Origin: Actinomycetes bacterium
GTDB taxonomy: Bacteria; Actinomycetota; Acidimicrobiia; Acidimicrobiales; Bog-793
Assembly (NCBI GenBank): GCA_021809425.1
Contig: JAKBAA010000002.1
Location: forward strand, 3,634 to 67,633
DNA: 64,000 bases
Direction: 5' to 3'
The translations under genes and the position numbers were made by a program. Shown here piece by piece: positions 16,882-27,853 of this stretch (position 1 is its first letter; every line of letters begins with the position of its first letter). The notes beneath the pieces were generated by a model. It had not been told where the DNA came from. It searched no databases and saw only the letters and a program-made list of their open reading frames with translations.

Positions 16882-19800
16882 CTACCCGGTGGTCCCCGCG
16901 GTCCCGGTGGTCCCCGCGGTCCCGGTGGCTCCCGTGGTCCCGGTGGTCCCGGTGGTCCCGGTGGTCCCGGCGGTGGTGATCGTGCCGCTCGTCGAGATCG
17001 TCGCACCGACCGGCGTCCCGAACGTCCCGACGGCCGTCGCCCCGGTCGTCGTCGCCCCGGTGAGCGTCGTGCCTGCGAGGGTGGCGCTGTCGAGGTTGGC
17101 GCCGGACAGGTTGGCACCTTGCAGGTTGGCGTCGAGGAGATCGGCGCCGACCAGGTCGGCGTTCGACAGGCTCATACCCGTGCCCACGGCGTCGGAGAGG
17201 TTGGCGCCGGACAGGTTGGCCCCGGTCAGGTTGGCGTTCGACAGGGTCGCCCCGACCATCGTCGCCGCCGTGAGGTTGGCGCCGGACAGGTTGGCCCCGG
17301 AGAGGCTGGCGCTCGACAGGTTCGCCCCGGCCAGGTTGTCGCTCGCCAGGTTGTCGCCGGTCAGCGTGGCGCTCGAGAGGTTGGCGCCGGCCAGGTTGGC
17401 ACCGGTCAGCGCCGTCCCGGTCAGGCTGGCCCCCGTCAGGTCGGCCCCGGTCAGGTTGACGCCGGTCAAGCTGTCGCCCGACAGGTTGGCGCCGGCCAGG
17501 TTGGCGCTCGCAAGGTCGGCGCTCGGACCGACGAGGTAGCCGTCGACGAGCGACCACCCGGCCGGCAACGAGGTCGGCGAGCCGGTGATCCCGCCGGAGC
17601 CGACCCCGGTGAGGGTCGCCCCGGAGAGGTTGACCCCGTTCAGGTCGAGACCGGCCAGGTTGGCGTTCGTCAGATTGGCACCGTTGCCGATCAGGTAGCC
17701 GCCGACGAGCGACCAGCCGGGCGGGAGGGCGAGCGGGGTCCCGGTGATGCGCCCGGAGATCACCCCGGACAGGGTGGTGCCGGACAGGTTCGTCCCCTGG
17801 AGGTCGAGCCCGGTCAATGCCCCGTCGGTGAGGTTCGCCCCCGACAGGTCGGCGCCGGGGCCGACGAGGTAGCCGTTCACCTCGGCATAGCCAGAGGGAA
17901 GCGAGGACGGCTGCCCGACCGTCGCCCCCGAGGCGACGCCGGAGAGCGCCGCGCCGGAGAGGTCGGCGCCCGTCAGGTTGGCGCCGGGGCCGACGAGGTA
18001 GCCGCCGACGAGCGACCAGCCCGCGGGCAACGTCGACGGCGCCCCGGTGATCCCGCCCGAGCTGATCCCGGTGAGCGTCGCCCCGGCGAGGTCGGCACCA
18101 GCCAGGTCGGCGCCCGAGAGGCTGAGGTTGGTGAAGTTGGCATTCGACAGGTTGGCGCCGGGGCCGACGAGGTAGCCGGCAAGCACCGTCCACCCCGACG
18201 GCAGGCTCGCCGGGGTGCCGTCGAGCGTCCCCGAGGCGACCCCGGTCAGCACCGTCGCCGAGAGGCGAGCGCCGGCAAGGGTGGCGCTCGTGAGCGTCGC
18301 CCCTTGCAGGGTCGTCCCGCGTGCGCGCAGCTGGCCGAGGAGCGCTCCGGTGAGGTCGCTACCGCTGAGGTCGACGTCGACCAGCAGATCGCCGCGGAGG
18401 ACGGCCCCGTTGAGGGTGGCGCCCTGGAACGACGTCGCCCGGAGCGTCGCCCCGACGAGCTGTGCGTCGGTCAGCGTGGCGTTCTGCAGCGTTGCCCCAC
18501 GAAGGTCGGCCTCGTCGAGGTTCGCCCCGGTCAGCACGGCACCGACGAGGTGCGCCCCGGCAAGGTCGGCTCGGGCCAGGTCGACGTGCGCGAGCGAGGC
18601 ACCGTCGAGGGTGGCCCCCCCGAGGTGGGCCCCCGGACCGACGAGAAAGCCGCTGGCGACCGCAAAGGCGTTCGGCAGGCTCGTCGGGCTCCCGCTGAGT
18701 CCGCCTGAGGCGATACCACTCAGGTGGGCACCGGCGAGCGCGGCCCCCGACAGGGTGGCGCCGGTGAGCGACGCAGAGGTGAGGTAGGCACGCCGCAGGT
18801 CGGCGCCGCTCAGCGTGGCGCTCGCCAGGGTGGCGCTCGAGAGGTTGGCGCCCGACAGGTCGGCGTCGGTAAGGGTGGCGCTCGAGAGGTCGGCGCCGAC
18901 GAGGCTCGCCGCGTTCAGCGAGGCGCCCGTCAGGTTCGCGCTCGCCAGCCCGGCCCCTGCGAGGCTGGCCCGGTTGAGGCTGGCGTCGGTCAAGGTGGCG
19001 GTCCCGAGGCGAGCCTTGGCTACGTCGGCGCCCGAGAGCCTCGCCGAGGTGAGGTCGGCGCCGTACAGGTCGGCGCCGTACAGGTCGGCTCCCGAGGCGT
19101 TCGCCGAGGTGAGGTCGGCGCCGTACAGGTCGGCGCCGGCGAGGTCGGCACGAGCCAGGTCGGCGCCGGCGAGCGACAGGTTGCGCAGGTCGGCCCGCGC
19201 CAGGTTCGCCCCGGCGAGATCGGCGCCGGGCCCGACGAGGTGACCGCCGCGCAGCACGAAGCCCGGCGGCAGCCCGGCCGGCCTGCCGTACAAGCCGTCC
19301 GAGGCCGTCCCGGCGAGCGTCGCCGAGGCGAGGTTCGCTCCGGCCAGGTCGAGGTCGACCAGGCGCATCCCCGAGAGGCGCACGGCGGACAGGTTGACGC
19401 CCGGACCGATCAGGCGGTGGTCGACGAGGCCGACGCCGCGAGGAAGGGTCGCCGGGGTGCCCCGTACCGTCCCGCCGATGCCGTAGAGGTCGGCTTGGCC
19501 GAGCGCTGCCCCCGACAGGGTCGCCCCGGTGATCGTGACGTCGACGAGCCGAGCGCGCGAGGCCCGGAGGCCGACGAGGTCCGCCTGCGACAGCGTTGCC
19601 CCCGTCAGGTTCGCCCCGGCGAGGTCGGCGGCGGCGAGGTCGGCCCGGGCCAGGTCGGCGCCGGCAAGGTCGGCGCCGGACAGGTCGGCCCCGGCGAGAT
19701 CGGCCCGGGCGAGGTCGGCGCCGGACAGGTTCGCCCCCGCCAGGTAGGCTCGGGCGAGGTCAGCGGCGGACAGGTGCGCCCCCGACAGGTCGGCCCGGGC

Positions 19801-20076
19801 GAGGTCGGCGGCGGGGAGCCGTCGACCGGAGAGGTTGCGGCCCGAGAGGTTGCAACCTGCGAGGTCGTGCGCCCTGCCGGCGGTGACGAGGCAGCGGGTC
19901 GCCCCTGCCGTTCCTGCCGCTCCTGCAGCCGGTGCCGACAGCTCGGCCAGCGCGACGGCCGTCCCGGCGCCGACGCCCAGCACGAGGACCGCGCGAAGGA
20001 GCAGGCGCGCGCGACGCCGGCCGGCGCGGCGGCCTGCGCCCGACGGCGCGTGCTCGTTCGTGCTCGCTCTAGCCAC
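16882..20076 (-). CDS. Giant pentapeptide-repeat (right-handed beta-helix) protein with N-terminal signal/anchor and C-terminal Gly-X-Y tail
   Basis: Hundreds of A(D/N)LxG-type pentapeptides. N-terminus RRRARLLLRAVLVLGVGAGTAVALAEL. I prefer GTG 20076, which follows GGGAGGA by 5 nt and overlaps the upstream stop by 8 nt (GTGGCTAG). The track start 20187 is the alternative. Confidence 0.85.
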   Translation of the reverse strand: MARASTNEHAPSGAGRRAGRRRARLLLRAVLVLGVGAGTAVALAELSAPAAGAAGTAGATRCLVTAGRAHDLAGCNLSGRNLSGRRLPAADLARADLSGAHLSAADLARAYLAGANLSGADLARADLAGADLSGADLAGADLARADLAAADLAGANLTGATLSQADLVGLRASRARLVDVTITGATLSGAALGQADLYGIGGTVRGTPATLPRGVGLVDHRLIGPGVNLSAVRLSGMRLVDLDLAGANLASATLAGTASDGLYGRPAGLPPGFVLRGGHLVGPGADLAGANLARADLRNLSLAGADLARADLAGADLYGADLTSANASGADLYGADLYGADLTSARLSGADVAKARLGTATLTDASLNRASLAGAGLASANLTGASLNAASLVGADLSSATLTDADLSGANLSSATLASATLSGADLRRAYLTSASLTGATLSGAALAGAHLSGIASGGLSGSPTSLPNAFAVASGFLVGPGAHLGGATLDGASLAHVDLARADLAGAHLVGAVLTGANLDEADLRGATLQNATLTDAQLVGATLRATSFQGATLNGAVLRGDLLVDVDLSGSDLTGALLGQLRARGTTLQGATLTSATLAGARLSATVLTGVASGTLDGTPASLPSGWTVLAGYLVGPGANLSNANFTNLSLSGADLAGADLAGATLTGISSGGITGAPSTLPAGWSLVGGYLVGPGANLTGADLSGAALSGVASGATVGQPSSLPSGYAEVNGYLVGPGADLSGANLTDGALTGLDLQGTNLSGTTLSGVISGRITGTPLALPPGWSLVGGYLIGNGANLTNANLAGLDLNGVNLSGATLTGVGSGGITGSPTSLPAGWSLVDGYLVGPSADLASANLAGANLSGDSLTGVNLTGADLTGASLTGTALTGANLAGANLSSATLTGDNLASDNLAGANLSSASLSGANLSGANLTAATMVGATLSNANLTGANLSGANLSDAVGTGMSLSNADLVGADLLDANLQGANLSGANLDSATLAGTTLTGATTTGATAVGTFGTPVGATISTSGTITTAGTTGTTGTTGTTGATGTAGTTGTAGTTG

Positions 20077-20818
20077 CCGATCCTCCCGTTCCTGCTCTAC
20101 CCGACCCACCACCGCCGGCGGCGCTGCCGGGCCCACCACCGGCGGACGCGCCGCCGGCGCCGAAGCTGCCGCCGGCAAGCCCGCCACGGGCGGACGACGA
20201 CACGCCGGCCGCCGTCGCCGAGACCGAGATGGCGCTCACCACGCCCGACGCGCTCGTCGAGCCCTGGACGACGATCCTGTCGCCGCTCTTCAGGGTCGAG
20301 ACGGTCGCCTTCGCGTCGCGGTCGATCGTGACGCCCGGCGACAGCCTCACCTTGACGATGGTCCCGCTCGAGGTCGTGAGGTAGAGGGTGTCGCCCACCA
20401 CGGCGGTGAGGGTGCCGGTAGCCGCCGGCGGGGTGAAGCCGCCGAACCCGCCGGTGGCCGTCGAGCCCGTGCGGCCGGCAGCGCCCGCGGCGGCGGATGA
20501 CCCGGCTCGACCGAGCAGCGCCGCTATGCGCGAAGCAAAGGCGGACGAGCTGCCGCCCGCCGACGAGGTGCCGTCGGCACGCTGCACGGCGGCGCCGCCC
20601 CAGAAGGCACCGGCGGCCACGACGAGCGCCAGCAGGACGAGCATCGGGGCGCGCAGCCGCACGCCCGAGCGGTGGGCCTTCGCCGGCCAGGGGTCGTCGC
20701 CGTCCACGCTGGCGCTGCCGGCGAGCATCGCCAGCAGGTCCTGGTCGGGCCCTGTCCCGCCGGGGTCGGCGGGCCCGACAGGAGGGACCGGCTCGGTTGG
20801 CGAAGTCTCGTAGGGCAT
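20069..20818 (-). CDS. Membrane-anchored protein with one DUF5666-like small beta-barrel domain and Gly-rich tail
   Basis: ATG 20818 lies 7 nt after GAAGGAGG. TM helix MLVLLALVVAAGAFWGGAAV. Domain ...GTLTAVVGDTLYLTTSSGTIVKVRLSPGVTIDRDAKATVSTLKSGDRIVVQGS... matches the repeats in 25129..26055. DUF5666 naming is from memory of the motif, not a search. Confidence 0.7.
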   Translation of the reverse strand: MPYETSPTEPVPPVGPADPGGTGPDQDLLAMLAGSASVDGDDPWPAKAHRSGVRLRAPMLVLLALVVAAGAFWGGAAVQRADGTSSAGGSSSAFASRIAALLGRAGSSAAAGAAGRTGSTATGGFGGFTPPAATGTLTAVVGDTLYLTTSSGTIVKVRLSPGVTIDRDAKATVSTLKSGDRIVVQGSTSASGVVSAISVSATAAGVSSSARGGLAGGSFGAGGASAGGGPGSAAGGGGSGRAGTGGSGG

Positions 20819-20843: not shown

Positions 20844-22070
20844 TCACTCATAGCGGAGTGCCTCGATCGGTCGCAACGAGGCCGCCCGGTTGGCCGGATA
20901 GAACCCGAAGAAGACACCAATGCCGATGGCCACGCCGAAGGCGAGGAAGATCGAGTAGGGGGCGATCGCGGGCTGGACTCCGGTGATCTTGAACTGCGAG
21001 CCGACCACGCCGACCACGACGCCGAGGACGGCGCCGATCAGCGAGAGGACCACCGCCTCGATGAGGAACTGGCCGAGGATGGCGCCTTTCGGGGCCCCGA
21101 TGGCCTTCCGGATGCCGATCTCCCGGGTGCGCTCGGAGACGGACACGAGCATGATGTTCATCACCCCGATGCCACCGACGAGCAGCGAGATGCCGGCGAC
21201 GGCTGCCAGCAGCGTGGTGAACGTGCTGCTCGTCGACTGGGCCGTCGAGAGCAGCTGGGAGGCGCTCGTGACGGTGAAGGGAAGGTTGGCGACCGTCGTG
21301 TTCTCCGAGGTGGCAAGGACCTGCTCGACCTCCGCCTCGGCCGCCGGGATGGCCGCGGACGACTTCGCCTGGACGAGGAGCTGGCTGAAGGTCGACGCCT
21401 CGCCCGTCAGCTGGTTCTGCACCGCCGTGTACGGGGCGATCACCACGTTGTCCTGGTTGGTGATGCCGCTCGTCCCCTTGCTGGCGAGGACGCCGACGAC
21501 CTTGAAGCTGGCCCCGTTGAGCAGGATGGTGGCACCGAGCGGGTCACCGCCGACCCCGAACAGGTCCTGGGCGACCGTCTGCCCGATGAGGACGTCCTGC
21601 ACCGCGTTCGTCACCTCCTCGCTCGTGAGCGTGCTTCCTGCCTGCACCGTGTAGTCGTCGGCGGCGAGGTAGTGGGGCGTGGTCCCGATGACCGAGACGC
21701 TCGACGCCGTGGCCGTCTGGTAGGTGGCCGTCACGCTCGTCGAGATCACCGGCGACGCCGAGACGACGTCAGGGGCGAGACGCCGGTCCTGGATCTGCTG
21801 GAGGTCCGACAGGGTGAGGACGACCGGCTTGGTCTGGGTCACCCCCGACGTGGTGCCGAAGCCGAACGAGCCCCGGTTGAAGACGGTCAAGGTGTTGGTG
21901 CCGAGCGAGTTGATCTGCGCCTGCACGGCGTTCGACGAGCCGGTGCCGACGGCGATGAGGATGATGACGGCCCCGACGCCGATGAGGACGCCCAACATGG
22001 TGAGCGCCGAGCGCAGCTTGTTGGCGTTGAGGCCCCGGAGGGCGATGCGGAGGTTGTCGCCGAGCCTCAT
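20844..22070 (-). CDS. MacB/FtsX-type ABC transporter permease
   Basis: N-terminus [36 protein letters not shown], a large extracytoplasmic domain, and a C-terminal FtsX-type 3-helix bundle ending ...PANRAASLRPIEALRYE. ATGA overlap with the ATPase gene. Confidence 0.9.
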   Translation of the reverse strand: MRLGDNLRIALRGLNANKLRSALTMLGVLIGVGAVIILIAVGTGSSNAVQAQINSLGTNTLTVFNRGSFGFGTTSGVTQTKPVVLTLSDLQQIQDRRLAPDVVSASPVISTSVTATYQTATASSVSVIGTTPHYLAADDYTVQAGSTLTSEEVTNAVQDVLIGQTVAQDLFGVGGDPLGATILLNGASFKVVGVLASKGTSGITNQDNVVIAPYTAVQNQLTGEASTFSQLLVQAKSSAAIPAAEAEVEQVLATSENTTVANLPFTVTSASQLLSTAQSTSSTFTTLLAAVAGISLLVGGIGVMNIMLVSVSERTREIGIRKAIGAPKGAILGQFLIEAVVLSLIGAVLGVVVGVVGSQFKITGVQPAIAPYSIFLAFGVAIGIGVFFGFYPANRAASLRPIEALRYE

Positions 22071-22861
22071 GTCGCCGTCACCGCTCCGGTCGGCGGGACG
22101 CGCACCGCCACGGTCGGGTCGTAGCCCGGCAGGTGGCGCGGCGGCGGCTGGCCGACCGGCACGACGCGCACGTCCTCCACGATCTCGCCGTCGCGCACCC
22201 GAACGATGCGCTTGGCGTACTGGGCGACGTCGTGCTCGTGGGTGATGAGCACGATCGTCCGACCGAGCTGGCTCACCTGGCTGAACAGTGCCATCACGTC
22301 CGCCTGGGAGCTGCTGTCGAGGTTCCCCGTCGGCTCGTCGGCCAGCAGCAGCGCCGGGTTCGTCACGAGGGCCCGGGCGATCGCCACCCGCTGCTGCTGG
22401 CCCCCCGAAAGCGCCGAGGGGAGGTGCAGCTCACGGCCGGCGAGCCCCACCGCGGCGAGGGCAGCCATCGCCCGGTCCCGCCGCTCGGCGCGGTGCACCC
22501 CGGCGTAGACGAGCGGCAGCTCCACGTTGGCGAGCGCCGTCGTTCGGGGGATCAGGTTGAACGCCTGGAAGACGAAGCCGATCTTCCTGCTCCGCACGAC
22601 CGCCAGGGCCGCCTCGTCGAGGGTGCGGACGTCGACGCCGTCGAGCCAGTAGTAACCGCTCGTCGGCACGTCGAGGCAGCCGATGACGTTCATGAGCGTG
22701 GACTTGCCGGACCCGGAGGCACCCATGATCGCCACGAAGTCACCGGGCTCGACGACAAGCGACACCCGGCGCAGCGCGTGCACGACGTTCTCCCCGGCGG
22801 CGTAGTCCTTGGCCACGTTCCAGAGGGCGATCACCGGCCGGCGCCGGTCGGGACCGGTCAT
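22067..22861 (-). CDS. MacB/LolD-type ABC transporter ATP-binding protein
   Basis: Walker [14 protein letters not shown]-loop FVFQAFNL, signature [15 protein letters not shown], Walker [17 protein letters not shown] overlaps at both ends. Confidence 0.95.
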
Positions 22862-25083
22862 CCGCCGGCACGGGCACGGAACCCGCCACCACCGCCGCCG
22901 AGGAAGGCGCCCCCGCCGCCGAGGAAGCCACCACCGCCACCACCGCCGCCGCCTGCCGCGGAGGTGGCGGCGCCCGCGACGGAGACGCTCGGGAGGACGA
23001 CCGTCTCACCGGCGGTGAGCCCGCTCAGGATCTGGGTCGTCGAGCTGCCGACGATGCCGACCGTCACCGGCGTGGTCACCTGGCTGGTTCCCCTCAGCAC
23101 GGTCACGGTGGAGCGCGCTCCCGACGTGGTCACCGCCTGGCTCGGCACCTCGAGCACGTTGCTCGCTGTCTTCGCCACCACGCTCACGTCGGCGGTCATG
23201 CCGTCGTGCACCTGGGCCGGCGGGGCGTGCAAGGTGATCGTGACCGGGTACTCGACCACGTTCGAGGACACGGTCGAGGTCGGCGAGATGCTCGTGATGG
23301 AGCCGGCGGACGTCACGCTCGTGAGGGCCGGGAAGCTGACCGTGGCCGTCTGGCCGACTGCGAGGTCGCCGATGTCGGCTTCGGGGAAGTCGACGACGAT
23401 GGCGAGCGAGCGGAAGTCGGCGATCTGTACGATGCCGCTCGACGACCCGCTCCCGCTCCCGCTGCTGCTCGAGCCGGCACCACTCCCGCTGCCGCTCGAG
23501 GAGCTGGTCGACGCCGTGGCGAGCGACGTCGAGGACGTGCCCGCGCTCACCGTCTGGCCGACGGCGCCGTTGACGGCCGTCACCGTCCCGCTGATCGGCG
23601 CTCGCAGCGTCGTGTCCGCCAGGTTGGTCTCGTCCTGCACGAGCGTCGCCTTGTCCTGGGCGATGGCTGCCTCGTCCTGCGCGATCGTGGCCGCGTCCGG
23701 CTGGTTGCTGGCAGCGTTCGCGGCGGTCGTCGACGTCAAGCTCTCCTTCGCCTGCCGCAGCGACTGGGTCGCCCGGCTGACCCCTTGTGCATCCGTCGCG
23801 ATCAGCTGCTGCTCGCTCACGCACGCGCTCTGCGCAGTGGTGAAGCTGACCGTCGATCCGACCGCCGTCCCTGCCAGGTTGGTGGCGAGGAGCCGGAACA
23901 CGTACACCGTGTTCGGGCGCAGGCCGGTCACCGAGGCCGAGACCGAGGCGAGGCTCGTCCCGTTCCCGGCGCTGACGACAGCCGTCTCGTGGCCGAAGAC
24001 GGACGTCGTGCCGTACTCGAAGGCGTAGGAGGTGTCGCCACCCTCCGGGTTCACGGCGCCGGAGAAGGTCGCGGTCGTGGTCCCCGCACTGGCGCTCCCC
24101 GTCTCGGCCACCGGGACCACCACCGCCGTGGCGCTGTCGAGCGACGCCGTCGTCCCGCTGCTCCGCAGCGTGGCGCCCGCCGTCGACGCCGTGCCGGCCC
24201 CACCGCCTGTCGCCGTAGCGCTACCGGAGCCCGCGCCGGTACCGGCCGAGCCGGCCGTGCCCGCTCCGCCCGGCGACGAGCCGGTTCCCGAGGAGGTTCC
24301 CGTCGAGCTCGTTCCGCCCCCGGTCGAGGGCGTCCCGCCGGCGGACGTCCCGCTCGAGCCGTTGGCGCCCGTCGAGCCGGAGCCGGTCGTCGAGCCGGAG
24401 CCGGTGCTCGCTGCCCCGGTCGAGCTCGACGTGCTGTTGGTCGCTGCCCCGGTCGAGCTCGACGTGCCGGTGGTCGCTGCCCCGGTCGCTCCGATCGAGG
24501 CGGCCGAGGTGGCCGGGCAGCTCGCTGCCTGCAACGAGCGGAGCGTCGCCTGCGCCTCGGCCAGGGTCGTCTGGTCGCTCTGCAACGTCTGCTCGGCGGT
24601 CACGACAGCTGCCTCGGACCCGATCAGGTTGGCCGTGTCGGAGGCGGCCGTCGCCGCTGTCGGACCGGCCTCGGCGGTGGCGAGGGTCTGCTGGGCGCCC
24701 AGCAACGCCGCGTTCGCCTGCTGCACCGTGTCGGCCGCCTGGGTCGCGTCGATGGCGGCGACGAGCGCGCCCGCCTGCACCTGCTGGCCAACCCTGACAC
24801 GCAGCGTCCGCAGCGTGCCCGAGACCGGGAAGTTCAGGCTCGACGTCTCGGCGGGCGCCACGTTCCCGGTGGCGGTCTCGAGCAGCTGGACCGTGCCTGT
24901 GCCCACGGTGACCGTGCGGGTGGCGCTGGCCGGAGCCGCGCCCGAGCCGAAGATCGAGCTCAGCCCGAAGCCGGCGAGCACGCCGAGGAGCGCCAGCAGC
25001 GCCACGTAGAGACCGATCGTTCGCCAACGCCGGCGGCCGGAGCCACCCGCGGGTCGAACGCCCGAGCGGCGGGAGATACGCAC
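22858..25083 (-). CDS. MacA/HlyD-family periplasmic adaptor homologue with a ~230-aa insertion (S/T/G-rich plus Fn3-like domain) and poly-Gly tail
   Basis: GTG start after GGGGAAAGAAGGGG. TM anchor; barrel-sandwich/lipoyl motifs (...SLNFPVSGTLRTLRVRVGQQVQAGALVAAID... and ...LRAPISGTVTAVNGAVGQTV...); coiled-coil hairpin halves. Insertion runs Cys189..Cys421. Tail is [31 protein letters not shown]. Confidence 0.85.
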   Translation of the reverse strand: MRISRRSGVRPAGGSGRRRWRTIGLYVALLALLGVLAGFGLSSIFGSGAAPASATRTVTVGTGTVQLLETATGNVAPAETSSLNFPVSGTLRTLRVRVGQQVQAGALVAAIDATQAADTVQQANAALLGAQQTLATAEAGPTAATAASDTANLIGSEAAVVTAEQTLQSDQTTLAEAQATLRSLQAASCPATSAASIGATGAATTGTSSSTGAATNSTSSSTGAASTGSGSTTGSGSTGANGSSGTSAGGTPSTGGGTSSTGTSSGTGSSPGGAGTAGSAGTGAGSGSATATGGGAGTASTAGATLRSSGTTASLDSATAVVVPVAETGSASAGTTTATFSGAVNPEGGDTSYAFEYGTTSVFGHETAVVSAGNGTSLASVSASVTGLRPNTVYVFRLLATNLAGTAVGSTVSFTTAQSACVSEQQLIATDAQGVSRATQSLRQAKESLTSTTAANAASNQPDAATIAQDEAAIAQDKATLVQDETNLADTTLRAPISGTVTAVNGAVGQTVSAGTSSTSLATASTSSSSGSGSGAGSSSSGSGSGSSSGIVQIADFRSLAIVVDFPEADIGDLAVGQTATVSFPALTSVTSAGSITSISPTSTVSSNVVEYPVTITLHAPPAQVHDGMTADVSVVAKTASNVLEVPSQAVTTSGARSTVTVLRGTSQVTTPVTVGIVGSSTTQILSGLTAGETVVLPSVSVAGAATSAAGGGGGGGGGFLGGGGAFLGGGGGGFRARAGG

Positions 25084-25128: not shown

Positions 25129-26055
25129 CTACGCGCCCGCTGGTGCGCCGAGGCCGATGAACACCGAGGTCGCCTTCTCGCGGCCCTTCGCCTTGGTGCC
25201 GGCGACGGCGACCTGCAGCCCGACCTTGACGTCGGCGAAGGCTGCCGTCGTGGCGCCCCGATCCCGGAAGACGGTCGAGGAGCTCACCTCCACCGTCACC
25301 GAGCCGGACGCGGTCACGACGACGAAGGTGTGCCGGGCGGCGTCAACCGAGGCGACCCTGCCGAGCACCCCCGGACGGAGCCCGCCCGGGCCACGGAAGC
25401 CGCCGAGGATCACCAACTTCGCCTTCTCGACGTCGCCGGACCTCGTACCGACGACAGCGACCTGCGCCCCGACCTTGAGGCTCGAGAAGGTGGCCCTCGT
25501 GCGCCCGCGGTCACGGAAGGCGGTCGACGAGAGGACGTCCACGGTCACCGAGCCGGTGGCCGTCCGCAACTCGAACGTGTGCCGGGCGGGATCGACCGAG
25601 CGGACCGTGCCGAACACGCCAGGGCGGAAACCGCCATGACCACCGAAGCCGGCACCGGGCGGACCGCCCGGCGCGCCGAGCGGCCCGGGGCCGCCGATGA
25701 TCACGATCGCCGCCGTGTCGACGGCATTGGCGGCCGACCCGATCACCGCCACGCTCCGTCCGACCTTCACGTCGGCAAAGGTCGGGGAGGCGATGGAGCT
25801 GTCCTTGTAGGCGGTCGCCGAGGTCACCTTCACGGTCACCTTCGACCCGCTGGCCGTCCTCACCGTGAAGGCGTGGGCGGCGGCGTCGACGGCGACGACG
25901 GTCCCCTGGATGCTCCCGCTCGTCGCCCGCACCACCGAGGCCCCGGCCGTGCCCGTGGCGAGCAGGGCAGGCGCCGGGAGGAGCGCCGCAGCGATCGCCG
26001 CGCCGCGCCCGAGGGTCCGCCATGCTGCCGGTCGCCCGGTGTCCGATCCCGCCAC
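25129..26055 (-). CDS. Secreted protein with three tandem DUF5666-like domains
   Basis: GTG start 7 nt after GGAGGG, and a signal-like N-terminus. Three ~90-aa repeats: G(T/R)V..VD.A.H.F.(V/L)(R/V)TA(S/T)GS.VTV.V.S.T.(F/Y)(R/K)D......F...KVG..VAV.G. They are joined by GGF/GGP-rich linkers. Confidence 0.8.
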   Translation of the reverse strand: MAGSDTGRPAAWRTLGRGAAIAAALLPAPALLATGTAGASVVRATSGSIQGTVVAVDAAAHAFTVRTASGSKVTVKVTSATAYKDSSIASPTFADVKVGRSVAVIGSAANAVDTAAIVIIGGPGPLGAPGGPPGAGFGGHGGFRPGVFGTVRSVDPARHTFELRTATGSVTVDVLSSTAFRDRGRTRATFSSLKVGAQVAVVGTRSGDVEKAKLVILGGFRGPGGLRPGVLGRVASVDAARHTFVVVTASGSVTVEVSSSTVFRDRGATTAAFADVKVGLQVAVAGTKAKGREKATSVFIGLGAPAGA

Positions 26056-26195: not shown

Positions 26196-26732
26196 TCAGC
26201 CGGCGTCGAGGCGCGCCTGGTAGGGGGCGCGCGCTTCGTCCCATCCGGTCACGACGGCCACGAACACGATGAAGGTGAGCACGTGGACCGTCGTGCACCA
26301 GATGCAGATGGCGTGGATCACGAACAGCTCGGCGTGGACCAGGTAGAAGACGAAGCCGATCGACACGACCGCCATCGCCAGGCGCAGCGGGGCGATCCAA
26401 CGGTTGGCCATCCGCCACGCCACCGGCAGACAGAGCGCCAGCATCGGCACGAAGAAGGCGAGCCCGAGCACGGCGACGGGGATGCCGAAGACGTACGACT
26501 GCGGGCTCGTCGTCACCTTCTGGCAGTCGATTGCCCCCCCGGTGCTGCCGAGCGGGCAGCTCAGGGCCGATGGGCTGTAGTGGGCGATCGTCATGTAGAC
26601 CGACACCCCGAGGCCGAAGAGGCAGACGACCGTCGTGAGCAGCGAGCGGGGCGTCCATCCGGCCCACACGCCGGCGATCCCCCGGGCGTCGCCGGCGGCC
26701 GGGCCGCCGTCGACCTTCTGGGATGCCTGCAC
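26196..26732 (-). CDS. Vitamin K epoxide reductase (VKOR) family membrane oxidoreductase (DsbB-analogue)
   Basis: Loop cysteine pair ...SALSCPLGSTGGAIDCQKV... and active-site CXXC in a TM helix, ...HAICIWCTTVH... Four hydrophobic helices. Start set to GTG 26732; the track's 27026 would overlap the upstream gene. Confidence 0.8.
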   Translation of the reverse strand: MQASQKVDGGPAAGDARGIAGVWAGWTPRSLLTTVVCLFGLGVSVYMTIAHYSPSALSCPLGSTGGAIDCQKVTTSPQSYVFGIPVAVLGLAFFVPMLALCLPVAWRMANRWIAPLRLAMAVVSIGFVFYLVHAELFVIHAICIWCTTVHVLTFIVFVAVVTGWDEARAPYQARLDAG

Positions 26733-26785
26733 CGAGGGGCGTGACGTGGCCGGGACGGGCCTCGCCGGGGCGCGCCGCGACACGG

Positions 26786-27853
26786 CTACGCGACCGGCTT
26801 CGCCTGGGCGATCGCCTTGGCGGCCGCCTTCACGCCCGGCGACGAGCACACCGCCGCCGGCTTGTTGCCGGTCAGCGAGCAGATGCCCGCCGACAGGTAG
26901 TTGGCCTGGGCGACGAACAGGGCGCCGTGCACGTACTGACCGGTCGCCGTCGTCGGGTTGCGGATGCCCTGGGCGATGGCCAGGCGGCCGGGACCGCCGT
27001 TGTGGAGCGGACCACCGGCCGGCCACAGCGACGAGAAGGCAGCAGGGTCACCGGCCGACACGTACTTGTTGCCGAGGTCGAGGAACGGGATGCCGGCCGA
27101 GCCGCTGGCGTTGAACGGCGCCGCGGCAGCCCCGGTGGTCTCGCTGCCGTCGTACTTCGTGTACAGCTTCGTCGCCCAGCCCGGGATGGTCTCGAGCGGC
27201 GCCGGGGTCGGCTCCTGGCGGTCGAGGCTCTCGTAGGACTGGAACGTCAGGTACGGGCTCGAGTAGGCCGACCGGTAGAAGGTGAACGTCGGCACGTTGC
27301 CGTCCGAGCTGCCCGAGGTCGTCTGGTGCAGGTGCGACCACGTCCCGAACCGGGACAGCGCGGCCACCATGGCGTAGCGCATCATGGCGCAGTACGGGCA
27401 GTATTCGGCGCCCTCGTAGAGGAACAGCGGCTTGCCCCCCCTGGTGAGGGCCGGCTGGCCCTTCGTCACAGTGAACGGCACCGGCTGGCCCGCGGTGCCG
27501 ATCGAGTTGTAGACCGACGTCGGGATGGTCGTGACGGCGTCGACGTACGCCGCCGAGGCCAGCGCCGGGTCCTGGCCGGTGGCCACCCCGTTGGCCGAGG
27601 TGCTCGTCTTGGGCTTGGACGACCCGCTCAGGGTGACGGCCACGAGCACCACGGCGACGATCACGACGGCGGCGACGGCGATCCAGCCGATCCGCTTCGA
27701 GCTGCTCGAGCGCCGCGCCCGGTCGGCCCGCCGCTGCGCTCCGGCCGAACGCGCCGGCGGTGGCGCCTGGTTGCCGAGGCGGCGCGGCCCCTGACCCGAC
27801 GTCGCCCCCCGTGCGGCGGCTCGCTGGGGGGACTGCTTCCTGTTCGACGCCAT
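26786..27853 (-). CDS. Membrane-anchored thioredoxin-like protein, DUF929-like (CPYC active site)
   Basis: ATG after GAGGAGAGAG. Basic N-terminus plus TM helix IGWIAVAAVVIVAVVLVAV. Core ...KPLFLYEGAEYCPYCAMMRYAMVAALSRFGTW... matches the DUF929 pattern as I remember it. Confidence 0.75.
   Translation of the reverse strand: MASNRKQSPQRAAARGATSGQGPRRLGNQAPPPARSAGAQRRADRARRSSSSKRIGWIAVAAVVIVAVVLVAVTLSGSSKPKTSTSANGVATGQDPALASAAYVDAVTTIPTSVYNSIGTAGQPVPFTVTKGQPALTRGGKPLFLYEGAEYCPYCAMMRYAMVAALSRFGTWSHLHQTTSGSSDGNVPTFTFYRSAYSSPYLTFQSYESLDRQEPTPAPLETIPGWATKLYTKYDGSETTGAAAAPFNASGSAGIPFLDLGNKYVSAGDPAAFSSLWPAGGPLHNGGPGRLAIAQGIRNPTTATGQYVHGALFVAQANYLSAGICSLTGNKPAAVCSSPGVKAAAKAIAQAKPVA

Follow-up and report, generated by a model that had tools for sequence, protein, structure and literature searches.

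What becomes of the hairpin tip of a MacA-type adaptor protein, the part that docks to TolC in Gram-negative bacteria, when the adaptor is found in Actinomycetota? This question is raised by a 64,000-nt stretch of DNA (hereafter called the window; G+C content of about 74%) from an Acidimicrobiales genome of the Bog-793 lineage (assembly GCA_021809425.1, contig JAKBAA010000002.1), in which a gene on the minus strand codes for a membrane-fusion, or periplasmic adaptor, protein of 741 amino acids (aa). A preliminary description, made from the sequence alone, had drawn attention to a long segment set between two cysteines at the tip of the helical hairpin of this protein. The analysis presented below shows that this segment is an insertion of 231 aa, made of a disordered tether and a fibronectin type III (Fn3)-like module, and that the corresponding position holds between zero and eight such modules in related adaptors from two classes of Actinomycetota.

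The adaptor and its operon

The gene and its closest partners in the window, together with the membrane anchor of the adaptor, are the following:

22858..25083, minus strand: adaptor (membrane-fusion/periplasmic adaptor protein) gene, 741 aa, GTG start (open reading frame, Pfam, phmmer and Foldseek)
24961..25026, minus strand: N-terminal transmembrane anchor, residues 20-41 (AlphaFold2 helix 20-41), preceded by an Arg-rich cytoplasmic tail
22067..22861, minus strand: ATP-binding cassette (ABC) ATPase of the pump; its gene overlaps the stop codon of the adaptor gene (Pfam ABC_tran, 6.9e-32)
20844..22070, minus strand: MacB-type permease (Pfam MacB_PCD, 2.6e-42, and FtsX, 1.3e-21)
20069..20818, minus strand: conserved fourth gene, 249 aa, with one transmembrane helix, a small beta-rich domain and a Gly-rich tail

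The adaptor gene, which is also called in the ENA and NCBI records, among them a metagenome-assembled genome that corresponds to the window (GCA_027326675.1, contig DAHWDO010000155.1), is the first gene of the operon and is followed by the ATPase and the MacB permease, with overlapping start and stop codons. This order is kept in 76 of 80 related loci. At the protein level, the Pfam families HlyD_3, HlyD_D23 and Biotin_lipoyl_2 all exceed their cut-offs, and the best solved sequence relative is Escherichia coli MacA (5nik; phmmer, E = 1.6e-17). When the AlphaFold2 model of the adaptor was compared with solved structures by Foldseek, MacA in the MacAB-TolC assembly was retrieved (9qgy_G, E = 9.7e-19; also 5nik_D), with target-normalised template modelling (TM) scores of 0.61-0.63 over about 650 alignment columns that cover both halves of the hairpin. 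The Pfam and Foldseek matches also follow the MacA domain order, with a split biotinyl-lipoyl domain, a beta-barrel and membrane-proximal domains. The N-terminus is Arg-rich (MRISRRSGVRPAGGSGRRRWR) and runs into a hydrophobic stretch, from which an N-in transmembrane helix is predicted, beyond which the protein would be extracytoplasmic. Taken together, the open reading frame encodes the adaptor, anchored in the membrane, of a MacB (type VII ABC) pump of the Gram-positive type.

Concerning the fourth gene, a homologue lies directly downstream of the permease in 56 loci, and its product is probably an accessory subunit, which may loosely resemble YknW in its role. It matched no Pfam family, and a relationship to DUF5666 proteins, considered as a candidate, was not supported (BLASTP E = 8; nothing in Pfam).

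A cysteine-bracketed insertion at the hairpin turn

The AlphaFold2 model was built from an alignment with 57 homologues and has a mean predicted local distance difference test score (pLDDT) of 76, with 418 residues at or above 90. Its elements follow one another as a transmembrane helix, a lipoyl half-domain, a helix, a disordered stretch, a beta-sandwich, a second helix and then the remaining lipoyl, beta-barrel and membrane-proximal domains. The parts that make up the hairpin and its tip are, in protein order:

24520..24744, minus strand: ascending alpha-hairpin helix, residues 114-188 (AlphaFold2 helices 114-139 and 143-188, pLDDT >90, break at 140-142)
24517..24519, minus strand: Cys189, which directly follows the ascending helix and lies in a conserved (D/E)A(L/A)(G/S)CP motif
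24112..24516, minus strand: disordered Gly/Ser/Thr/Ala tether, residues 190-324 (135 aa), defined by composition and by pLDDT <50 over 192-319
23833..24111, minus strand: Fn3-like beta-sandwich, residues 325-417, the positionally conserved last module (AlphaFold2, Foldseek, Pfam)
23821..23823, minus strand: Cys421, in the first turns of the descending helix, 4 residues past the module, in the motif S(S/A)C(V/A)xDxQ
23617..23835, minus strand: descending alpha-hairpin helix, residues 417-489 (AlphaFold2 helices 417-460 and 464-489, pLDDT 90-97, break at 461-463)

The two hairpin helices are thus about 75 residues long each (about 110 Å), and the Cys-bracketed insertion of 231 aa lies exactly between them. 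Translation of 22858-25083 on the minus strand gives exactly two cysteines, C189 and C421, within the peptides ...SLQAASCPATSA... and ...TTAQSACVSEQQ..., respectively, and the motifs conserved around them in the family read DEALGCP(P/A)A and TTxxS(S/A)C(V/A)xDxQ. The "ALGC" form of the first motif was considered as a possible lipobox and rejected, as its spacing is wrong, the query itself reads AASC, and the site lies about 150 residues past the transmembrane helix, at the end of a long helix. At matching heights, some 46 residues from the tip, both hairpin helices are interrupted by the breaks at 140-142 (about 24658-24666) and 461-463 (about 23695-23703); these paired breaks could represent a hinge or a stutter of the coiled coil.

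The tether is of very low complexity: residues 190-328 comprise 24.5% Gly, 23% Ser, 22% Thr and 19% Ala. In the corresponding DNA (24349-24488), Tandem Repeats Finder detected repeats of 33 bp (2.7 copies with 91% matches) and of 18 bp (3 copies), a pattern that suggests that the linker may have grown by slippage or unequal recombination.

The Fn3-like module

The module of about 90 aa has seven to eight strands and is modelled with a pLDDT of 80-94 within the full adaptor. Modelled alone from an alignment of 38 sister modules, residues 320-424 reached a pLDDT of 94.4. The top 50 PDB matches of the module found by Foldseek are all Fn3 or Fn3-like (TM 0.55-0.74, probability 1.0), the best being the sensor domain of RsgI4 (7cg8, TM 0.71), irisin and Fn3 domains of Dscam, NCAM, Robo and titin. 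In Pfam, the query module scores 22.7 bits for Pur_ac_phosph_N and 18.4 bits for fn3, below the respective cut-offs of 30 and 25, whereas 31 and 25 of 39 sister modules match these two families, respectively, with a best value of 3.6e-8. The assignment as Fn3-like is correct. No second copy of the module was found elsewhere in the window.

Outside the adaptors, the module is widespread. An exhaustive search with a junction profile, made of half a module, the second cysteine and the helix, picked up 7,330 cluster representatives (E <= 1e-10), in which single proteins have as many as 54 copies. The Fn3-like module thus ranks as a major family of repeats across public genomes and metagenomes. The whole junction is spanned by about 10 of the 150 best matches, the rest being dominated by giant tandem-module proteins. 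The same profile run against a word-indexed database gave only fragments of less than 240 aa, a result with no bearing on prevalence. The giant proteins (P0166-P0312) are 4,000-7,300 aa long and are built from 30-54 tandem copies of the same module.

At the structural level, most of the preliminary description is borne out. It had placed the only two cysteines at the codons listed above, and both the coordinates and the quoted flanking sequences are recovered in the translation; its identification of a MacA/HlyD-type adaptor agrees with the Pfam, phmmer and Foldseek matches; and the predicted structure puts the insertion where it had been proposed, between helices 114-188 and 417-489. The Ser/Thr/Gly stretch, estimated at about 140 aa, corresponds to the tether, and the module described as Fn3-like is so by its PDB matches and by the Pfam matches of its sisters. 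Only its extent needs amendment: the beta-sandwich is real but, instead of about 80 aa at about 23836-24081, it covers the slightly longer interval of residues 325-417 (23833-24111).

Distribution and copy number among relatives

A first homologue search had retrieved adaptors in which the same Cys pair surrounds 0-6 copies of the module, the maximum being found in P0002, with six modules between C169 and C914. A genome scan was then made, covering one genome per GTDB species and using 15 close sequences as the query alignment. It returned 80 loci, of which 70 hold intact orthologues, and the counts given below refer to these 70. All 80 loci come from metagenome-assembled genomes (MAGs) assigned to Acidimicrobiia (Acidimicrobiales, Acidimicrobiaceae), Thermoleophilia (Gaiellales, Solirubrobacterales) or unclassified Actinomycetota/Actinomycetes, and the isolate names of several of them (bog, fen, palsa, SPRUCE) point to peat or permafrost. 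One locus (L046) carries two convergent adaptor-ABC operons.

A single module is the most frequent state, with 39 orthologues, followed by two modules (14), none (10), three (5), four (1) and five (1). An additional protein, L059 (2650-7197, plus strand), not counted among the 70, has eight modules between C210 and C1200. Among the 60 module-bearing orthologues, 57 have both cysteines, two have neither and one has a single cysteine. In the Cys-less subclade, the replacement is concerted, LGCP becoming LGFP and SSC becoming SSQ or SSK. As for the module-less orthologues, nine out of ten have a loop of 8-121 residues closed by the same Cys pair, either short (CAQQQQQAC, CTAAHGTGAAC, CPGGSGQPAGGSC) or Ser/Thr/Gly-rich. 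More distant adaptors, from Streptomyces (P0089) and Paraconexibacter (P0076), have neither the module nor the cysteines. On the evidence of these alignments, the Cys-bracketed module insertion is clade-specific, being neither unique to one genome nor general to Actinobacteria.

Two further points of the preliminary description can be judged from these counts. Its proposal that the cysteines might form a disulfide is matched by the covariation expected of such a bond (57 with both, two with neither, one with a single cysteine), and the bond itself is thereby made probable. On lineage-specificity, which it had named as a point to check, the insertion is absent from more distant actinobacterial adaptors. 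The insertion is nevertheless not peculiar to the genome studied, as it is found clade-wide, with 0-8 modules, in MAGs of Acidimicrobiia and Thermoleophilia, so that the contrary possibility of a common feature of ordinary actinobacterial adaptors applies only in part.

Junction, linker and evolution of the array

The two ends of the insertion are built differently. At the C-terminal end, the last module and the second cysteine are separated by 4 residues in 55 of 57 orthologues and, in the model, the last strand of the module (412-415) leads straight into the descending helix, which starts at residue 417. The slack is entirely N-terminal: the linker between the first cysteine and the first module ranges from 15 to 303 residues, with an overall composition, across orthologues, of 29% Ser, 22% Thr, 16% Gly and 14% Ala. 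Its length correlates with the number of modules (Spearman 0.51, p = 6e-5), the shortest linkers for one, two, three, four and five modules being 15, 66, 69, 136 and 162 aa, respectively.

The terminal module is positionally orthologous, since all 22 terminal modules of multi-module proteins best match the terminal module of another protein. The inner modules of large arrays share up to 85% identity with one another, which points to recent tandem duplication. Copy number follows the core phylogeny in blocks, yet it differs among close relatives, with two vs. three modules at 79% core identity and zero vs. three at 75%. Modules can also be lost secondarily, as in L065, which has none within a clade of two- and three-module adaptors.

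Comparison with known adaptors

The closest characterised relative, E. coli MacA of the MacAB-TolC pump (5NIK, 3FPP), shares with the adaptor the N-terminal transmembrane anchor, the split lipoyl domain, the alpha-hairpin, the beta-barrel and the membrane-proximal domains, as well as a MacB-type ABC partner encoded in the same operon. The residues of hexamerisation are also conserved. In MacA, the hexameric ring is closed by a beta-barrel triad, E231, Y276 and T293 (PMC8277102). These residues align by phmmer with E568, Y612 and T630 of the adaptor (Y275/Y276 being paired with Y612/P613), three positions that do not vary in the family alignment. From these alignments, a hexameric tube like that of MacA can reasonably be inferred.

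The differences are concentrated in the hairpin and in the lipoyl gate loop, the latter being treated below. Whereas the tip of MacA is a tight turn whose RLS motif meshes with TolC, the adaptor has the 231-aa insertion in its place and hairpin helices of some 75 residues. In MacA, AcrA, MexA and HlyD, the cogwheel that binds TolC at the tip is formed by the RLS motif (RxxxLxxxxxxS/T; PMC3391258). The query has no match to it at any position, and in each of the 60 orthologues examined the stretch within 15 residues of the tip is free of it, also when the insertion is excised. This agrees with the preliminary description, in which the tip was taken to carry a new module in an organism without TolC. 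The motif is a mark of adaptors coupled to outer-membrane factors and not of the whole superfamily.

Adaptors of MacB-like pumps from organisms without an outer-membrane duct offer a second comparison. Spr0693 of Streptococcus pneumoniae (PDB 5XU0), which the adaptor model matched in Foldseek at E = 1.5e-8, carries at its hairpin turn a flexible loop of 22 residues (Pro142-Gly163); its hexameric tube has been proposed to reach the peptidoglycan layer, and the whole assembly to deliver substrate there (PMC5768738). YknX of Bacillus binds peptidoglycan (PMC5985334). No folded tip domain has been reported for either, and the alpha-barrel of Spr0693 is only 56 Å high. Compared with both, the present family adds the conserved Cys pair, the long low-complexity tether and 1-8 Fn3 modules. 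Accessory domains have been acquired by other periplasmic adaptors, such as the heavy-metal resistance-nodulation-division adaptors of the CusB/SilB type (PMC4446572), but these are N- or C-terminal extensions with metal-chaperone roles and not insertions at the hairpin turn.

Outside the adaptors, tandem Fn3, PhoD_N and purple-acid-phosphatase-N-like modules of bacterial surface and secreted proteins belong to the same sequence family (Pfam Pur_ac_phosph_N, fn3 and PhoD_N matches) and form arrays of up to 54 copies. There, they are linear stalks in one chain, whereas here the array is a loop insertion with both ends at the same point. In architecture only, a parallel is found in the SI3 insertion of the RNA polymerase trigger loop, which consists of two to five sandwich-barrel hybrid motif domains (bioRxiv 10.1101/2021.01.27.428476) and thus also places, in some lineages, a variable count of small beta domains at the tip of a helical hairpin. 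Protein, fold, compartment and function are unrelated, and no disulfide is involved.

Reviews of tripartite pumps describe what adaptor proteins, and above all their alpha-hairpins, do in bacteria that lack an outer membrane as unexplained (PMC4446572, PMC5985334), and the extra adaptor domains that are listed are terminal, not in the hairpin (PMC4446572). In full-text literature searches on adaptor proteins and insertions in their hairpins, neither an Fn3 insertion nor a Cys-closed loop at the tip of such a hairpin was found to have been described. Within the literature searched, the family is thus an undescribed, clade-wide variant of the MacA-type adaptor.

Gate loop, C-terminal tail and neighbouring genes

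Two other segments of the adaptor and four other genes of the window were also considered:

23440..23541, minus strand: second low-complexity insertion of the adaptor, residues 515-548, about 34 Ser/Gly-rich aa (AlphaFold2 pLDDT <50 for 527-544)
22861..22968, minus strand: Gly-rich C-terminal tail of the adaptor with Phe and Leu, residues 706-741 (GGGGGGGGGFLGGGGAFLGGGGGGF), disordered in the model
25129..26055, minus strand: secreted DUF5666 protein, 308 aa, with three repeats and GGFRPG-like linkers, between the VKOR gene and the adaptor gene
26196..26783, minus strand: VKOR gene (PF07884, 3.6e-27), CIWC motif
26786..27853, minus strand: DUF929 thioredoxin-like gene, CPYC motif, back to back with the VKOR gene and upstream of the DUF5666 and adaptor genes
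16882..20187, minus strand: pentapeptide-repeat open reading frame, 1101 aa (Pfam Pentapeptide, 5.8e-144, 21 stretches), after the pump operon and on the same strand

In the phmmer alignment, the Ser/Gly loop 515-548 replaces Q209-Q210-A211 of MacA, the lipoyl "gate ring" that lines the lumen, so that a loop of about 34 aa stands where MacA has three residues. All 15 close relatives have a Ser-rich insert of 30-80 aa at this position. Six such loops might fill the tube and act as an entropic valve. The Gly-rich C-terminal tail is present in 14 of 15 aligned relatives, that of P0001 being truncated.

By their motifs, the VKOR and DUF929 genes look like a disulfide-bond-forming pair, and their presence 1-2 kb upstream of the adaptor gene points to disulfide-forming machinery in the organism. 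As conserved parts of the system, these genes and the DUF5666 gene were rejected: VKOR and DUF929 are found in none of the 80 related loci, and a DUF5666 relative lies near the adaptor in only one other locus (L024), on the opposite strand. In many relatives (L009, L010, L011, L013 and about 40 others), the gene immediately preceding that of the adaptor codes for a small, lipoprotein-like product in which Cys motifs recur (AYRNCLKLHGV ... ALAACASLRPKG) and which matched no Pfam family, and histidine-kinase and response-regulator genes lie near the adaptor in about 30 loci. Neither the Cys-repeat lipoprotein nor two-component genes are found next to the operon in the window.

A proposed stapled tip with tethered stalks, and its alternatives

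The anatomy alone is very probably right. For the whole proposal, function included, in which a disulfide-stapled hairpin tip bears a tethered Fn3 stalk of variable length that projects from a hexameric tube into the cell wall, a tentative status is appropriate: it may well be correct, with chances a little under even. The hairpin turn, the RLS/TolC-docking site of Gram-negative MacA, would have been converted into a loop closed by a C189-C421 disulfide, a bond that covariation suggests. Such a bond would clamp the helix ends, allowing coiled coil and hexameric tube to form despite an insertion of 230 aa (up to about 990 aa in relatives), and would keep the tip from being pulled apart. The Fn3 domain would join the descending helix almost directly, through 4 residues, its N-terminus being tied to the ascending helix by the long disordered tether, in which the Gly/Ser/Thr stretch is possibly O-glycosylated. 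Fn3 domains have their termini at opposite poles, so that an array placed within a loop needs a return path, which the rigid C-terminal junction and the flexible N-terminal tether would provide; the lengthening of the linker with module number fits a tether that runs back along the rod. Given the conserved MacA hexamerisation residues, six stalks would crown the distal rim of the tube and, with helices of about 110 Å and a distal position, they would point into the wall. There, they would engage the wall as spacers or anchors and fix the exit of the tube in the peptidoglycan, substituting for TolC docking; their reach would be tuned as modules are gained and lost (0-8) through tandem duplication. 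Giant tandem arrays are typical of stalk or spacer modules.

Several points weigh against this proposal. The staple is not obligatory, since a Solirubrobacterales subclade (L017, L025, P0008-P0017) has three modules and no cysteines, and the proximity of C189 and C421 is read from secondary-structure positions, C189 following the helix end at 188 and C421 lying within the helix whose first residue is 417. How the Fn3 domain is oriented against the hairpin, and with it the outward projection, is likewise presumed, as is the monoderm status of the uncultured hosts, which is taken from taxonomy. The observed linkers are far above the geometric minimum, which leaves the length correlation as weak evidence. 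No wall-binding motif was identified in the module, and the search for a specialised surface on the tip-proximal module yielded T392 as the sole specifically conserved position, a result that argues against a specialised binding surface and fits a neutral decoration equally well.

Such a decoration, in which a promiscuous, duplication-prone Fn3 repeat would merely be tolerated in a permissive, exposed tip loop while an older Cys pair just stabilises the turn, is rather unlikely. It draws on the abundance of the module elsewhere (the 7,330 cluster representatives with up to 54 copies per protein), on the Cys-closed loops without a module in nine of the ten module-less orthologues, on the secondary loss in L065 and on the near absence of conservation specific to the last module. 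Yet the module is kept in 60 of 70 orthologues across two actinobacterial classes, and the 4-residue junction with the second cysteine, together with the positional orthology of the terminal module, speaks for long-term purifying selection on both presence and placement. The low specific conservation also counts against a role in recognition, in which the Fn3 domain would bind substrate, wall glycan or an envelope protein (the fourth-gene product or the upstream Cys-repeat lipoprotein of relatives) and recruit the partner to the tube exit. That the sensor domain of the anti-sigma factor RsgI4, itself Fn3-like, is the nearest solved structure, that conserved accessory genes flank the operon in many loci, and that YknX binds peptidoglycan (PMC5985334) would all agree with it; the terminal module, however, has no conserved surface signature, the module is a generic one common to unrelated giant proteins, and, the fourth gene apart, the neighbouring genes show no conservation with the window, so that recognition is quite unlikely.

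The position of the module, directly on the descending helix at the predicted rim of the tube, could also suit a lid, six Fn3 domains and their tethers covering the mouth as a valve or sieve that would replace the closed TolC aperture and be opened by the pushed substrate; the replacement of the MacA gate-ring residues by the second Ser/Gly-rich loop in the lumen would then be another sign that the family modifies gating elements. A lid of defined geometry fits poorly with an array of anything from 0 to 8 modules, arrays that form long rods would reach far past the mouth, and no conserved interface between modules was detected, which makes a gate of this kind decidedly unlikely. A further alternative concerns the cysteines themselves: C189 could pair with C421 of the neighbouring chain, turning the hexamer rim into a covalent ring or, at the extreme, both could be reduced and have no structural role. 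In the hexameric barrels of MacA and Spr0693, the ascending helix also adjoins the descending helix of the neighbour (PMC5768738), and covariation is equally compatible with intra-chain and inter-chain pairing. Relatives with just 7-10 residues between the two cysteines are, however, most simply explained as small intra-chain disulfide loops, and this alternative appears very unlikely.

The proposal of a stapled tip with tethered stalks can be extended to a full Gram-positive answer to the missing outer-membrane duct. A disulfide-locked rim would carry six Fn3 rods (0-8 modules, about 0-30 nm) that thread or brace the peptidoglycan as a wall-spanning chimney or cage, and the Ser/Gly gate loops (30-80 aa) would serve as an entropic, hydrogel-like one-way valve of the lumen. 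This extension is speculative and, on the whole, unlikely. If it were true, monoderm adaptors would use their alpha-hairpin, whose role has long lacked an explanation, to cross the wall, and the tip would be its functional end.

Significance for the adaptor family

In two classes of soil Actinomycetota, the hairpin tip of the adaptor is not vestigial: its turn appears to be stapled by a Cys pair, and Fn3 modules have been repeatedly gained, duplicated and sometimes lost at one and the same position. This recurrence suggests that the tip is an outward-facing, selectable interface. The family is also a clean case of a domain array that evolves inside a loop, both of its ends returning to the same point, and its natural length variants, from zero to eight modules, could be used to ask whether the adaptor tubes of Gram-positive bacteria engage or cross the cell wall.

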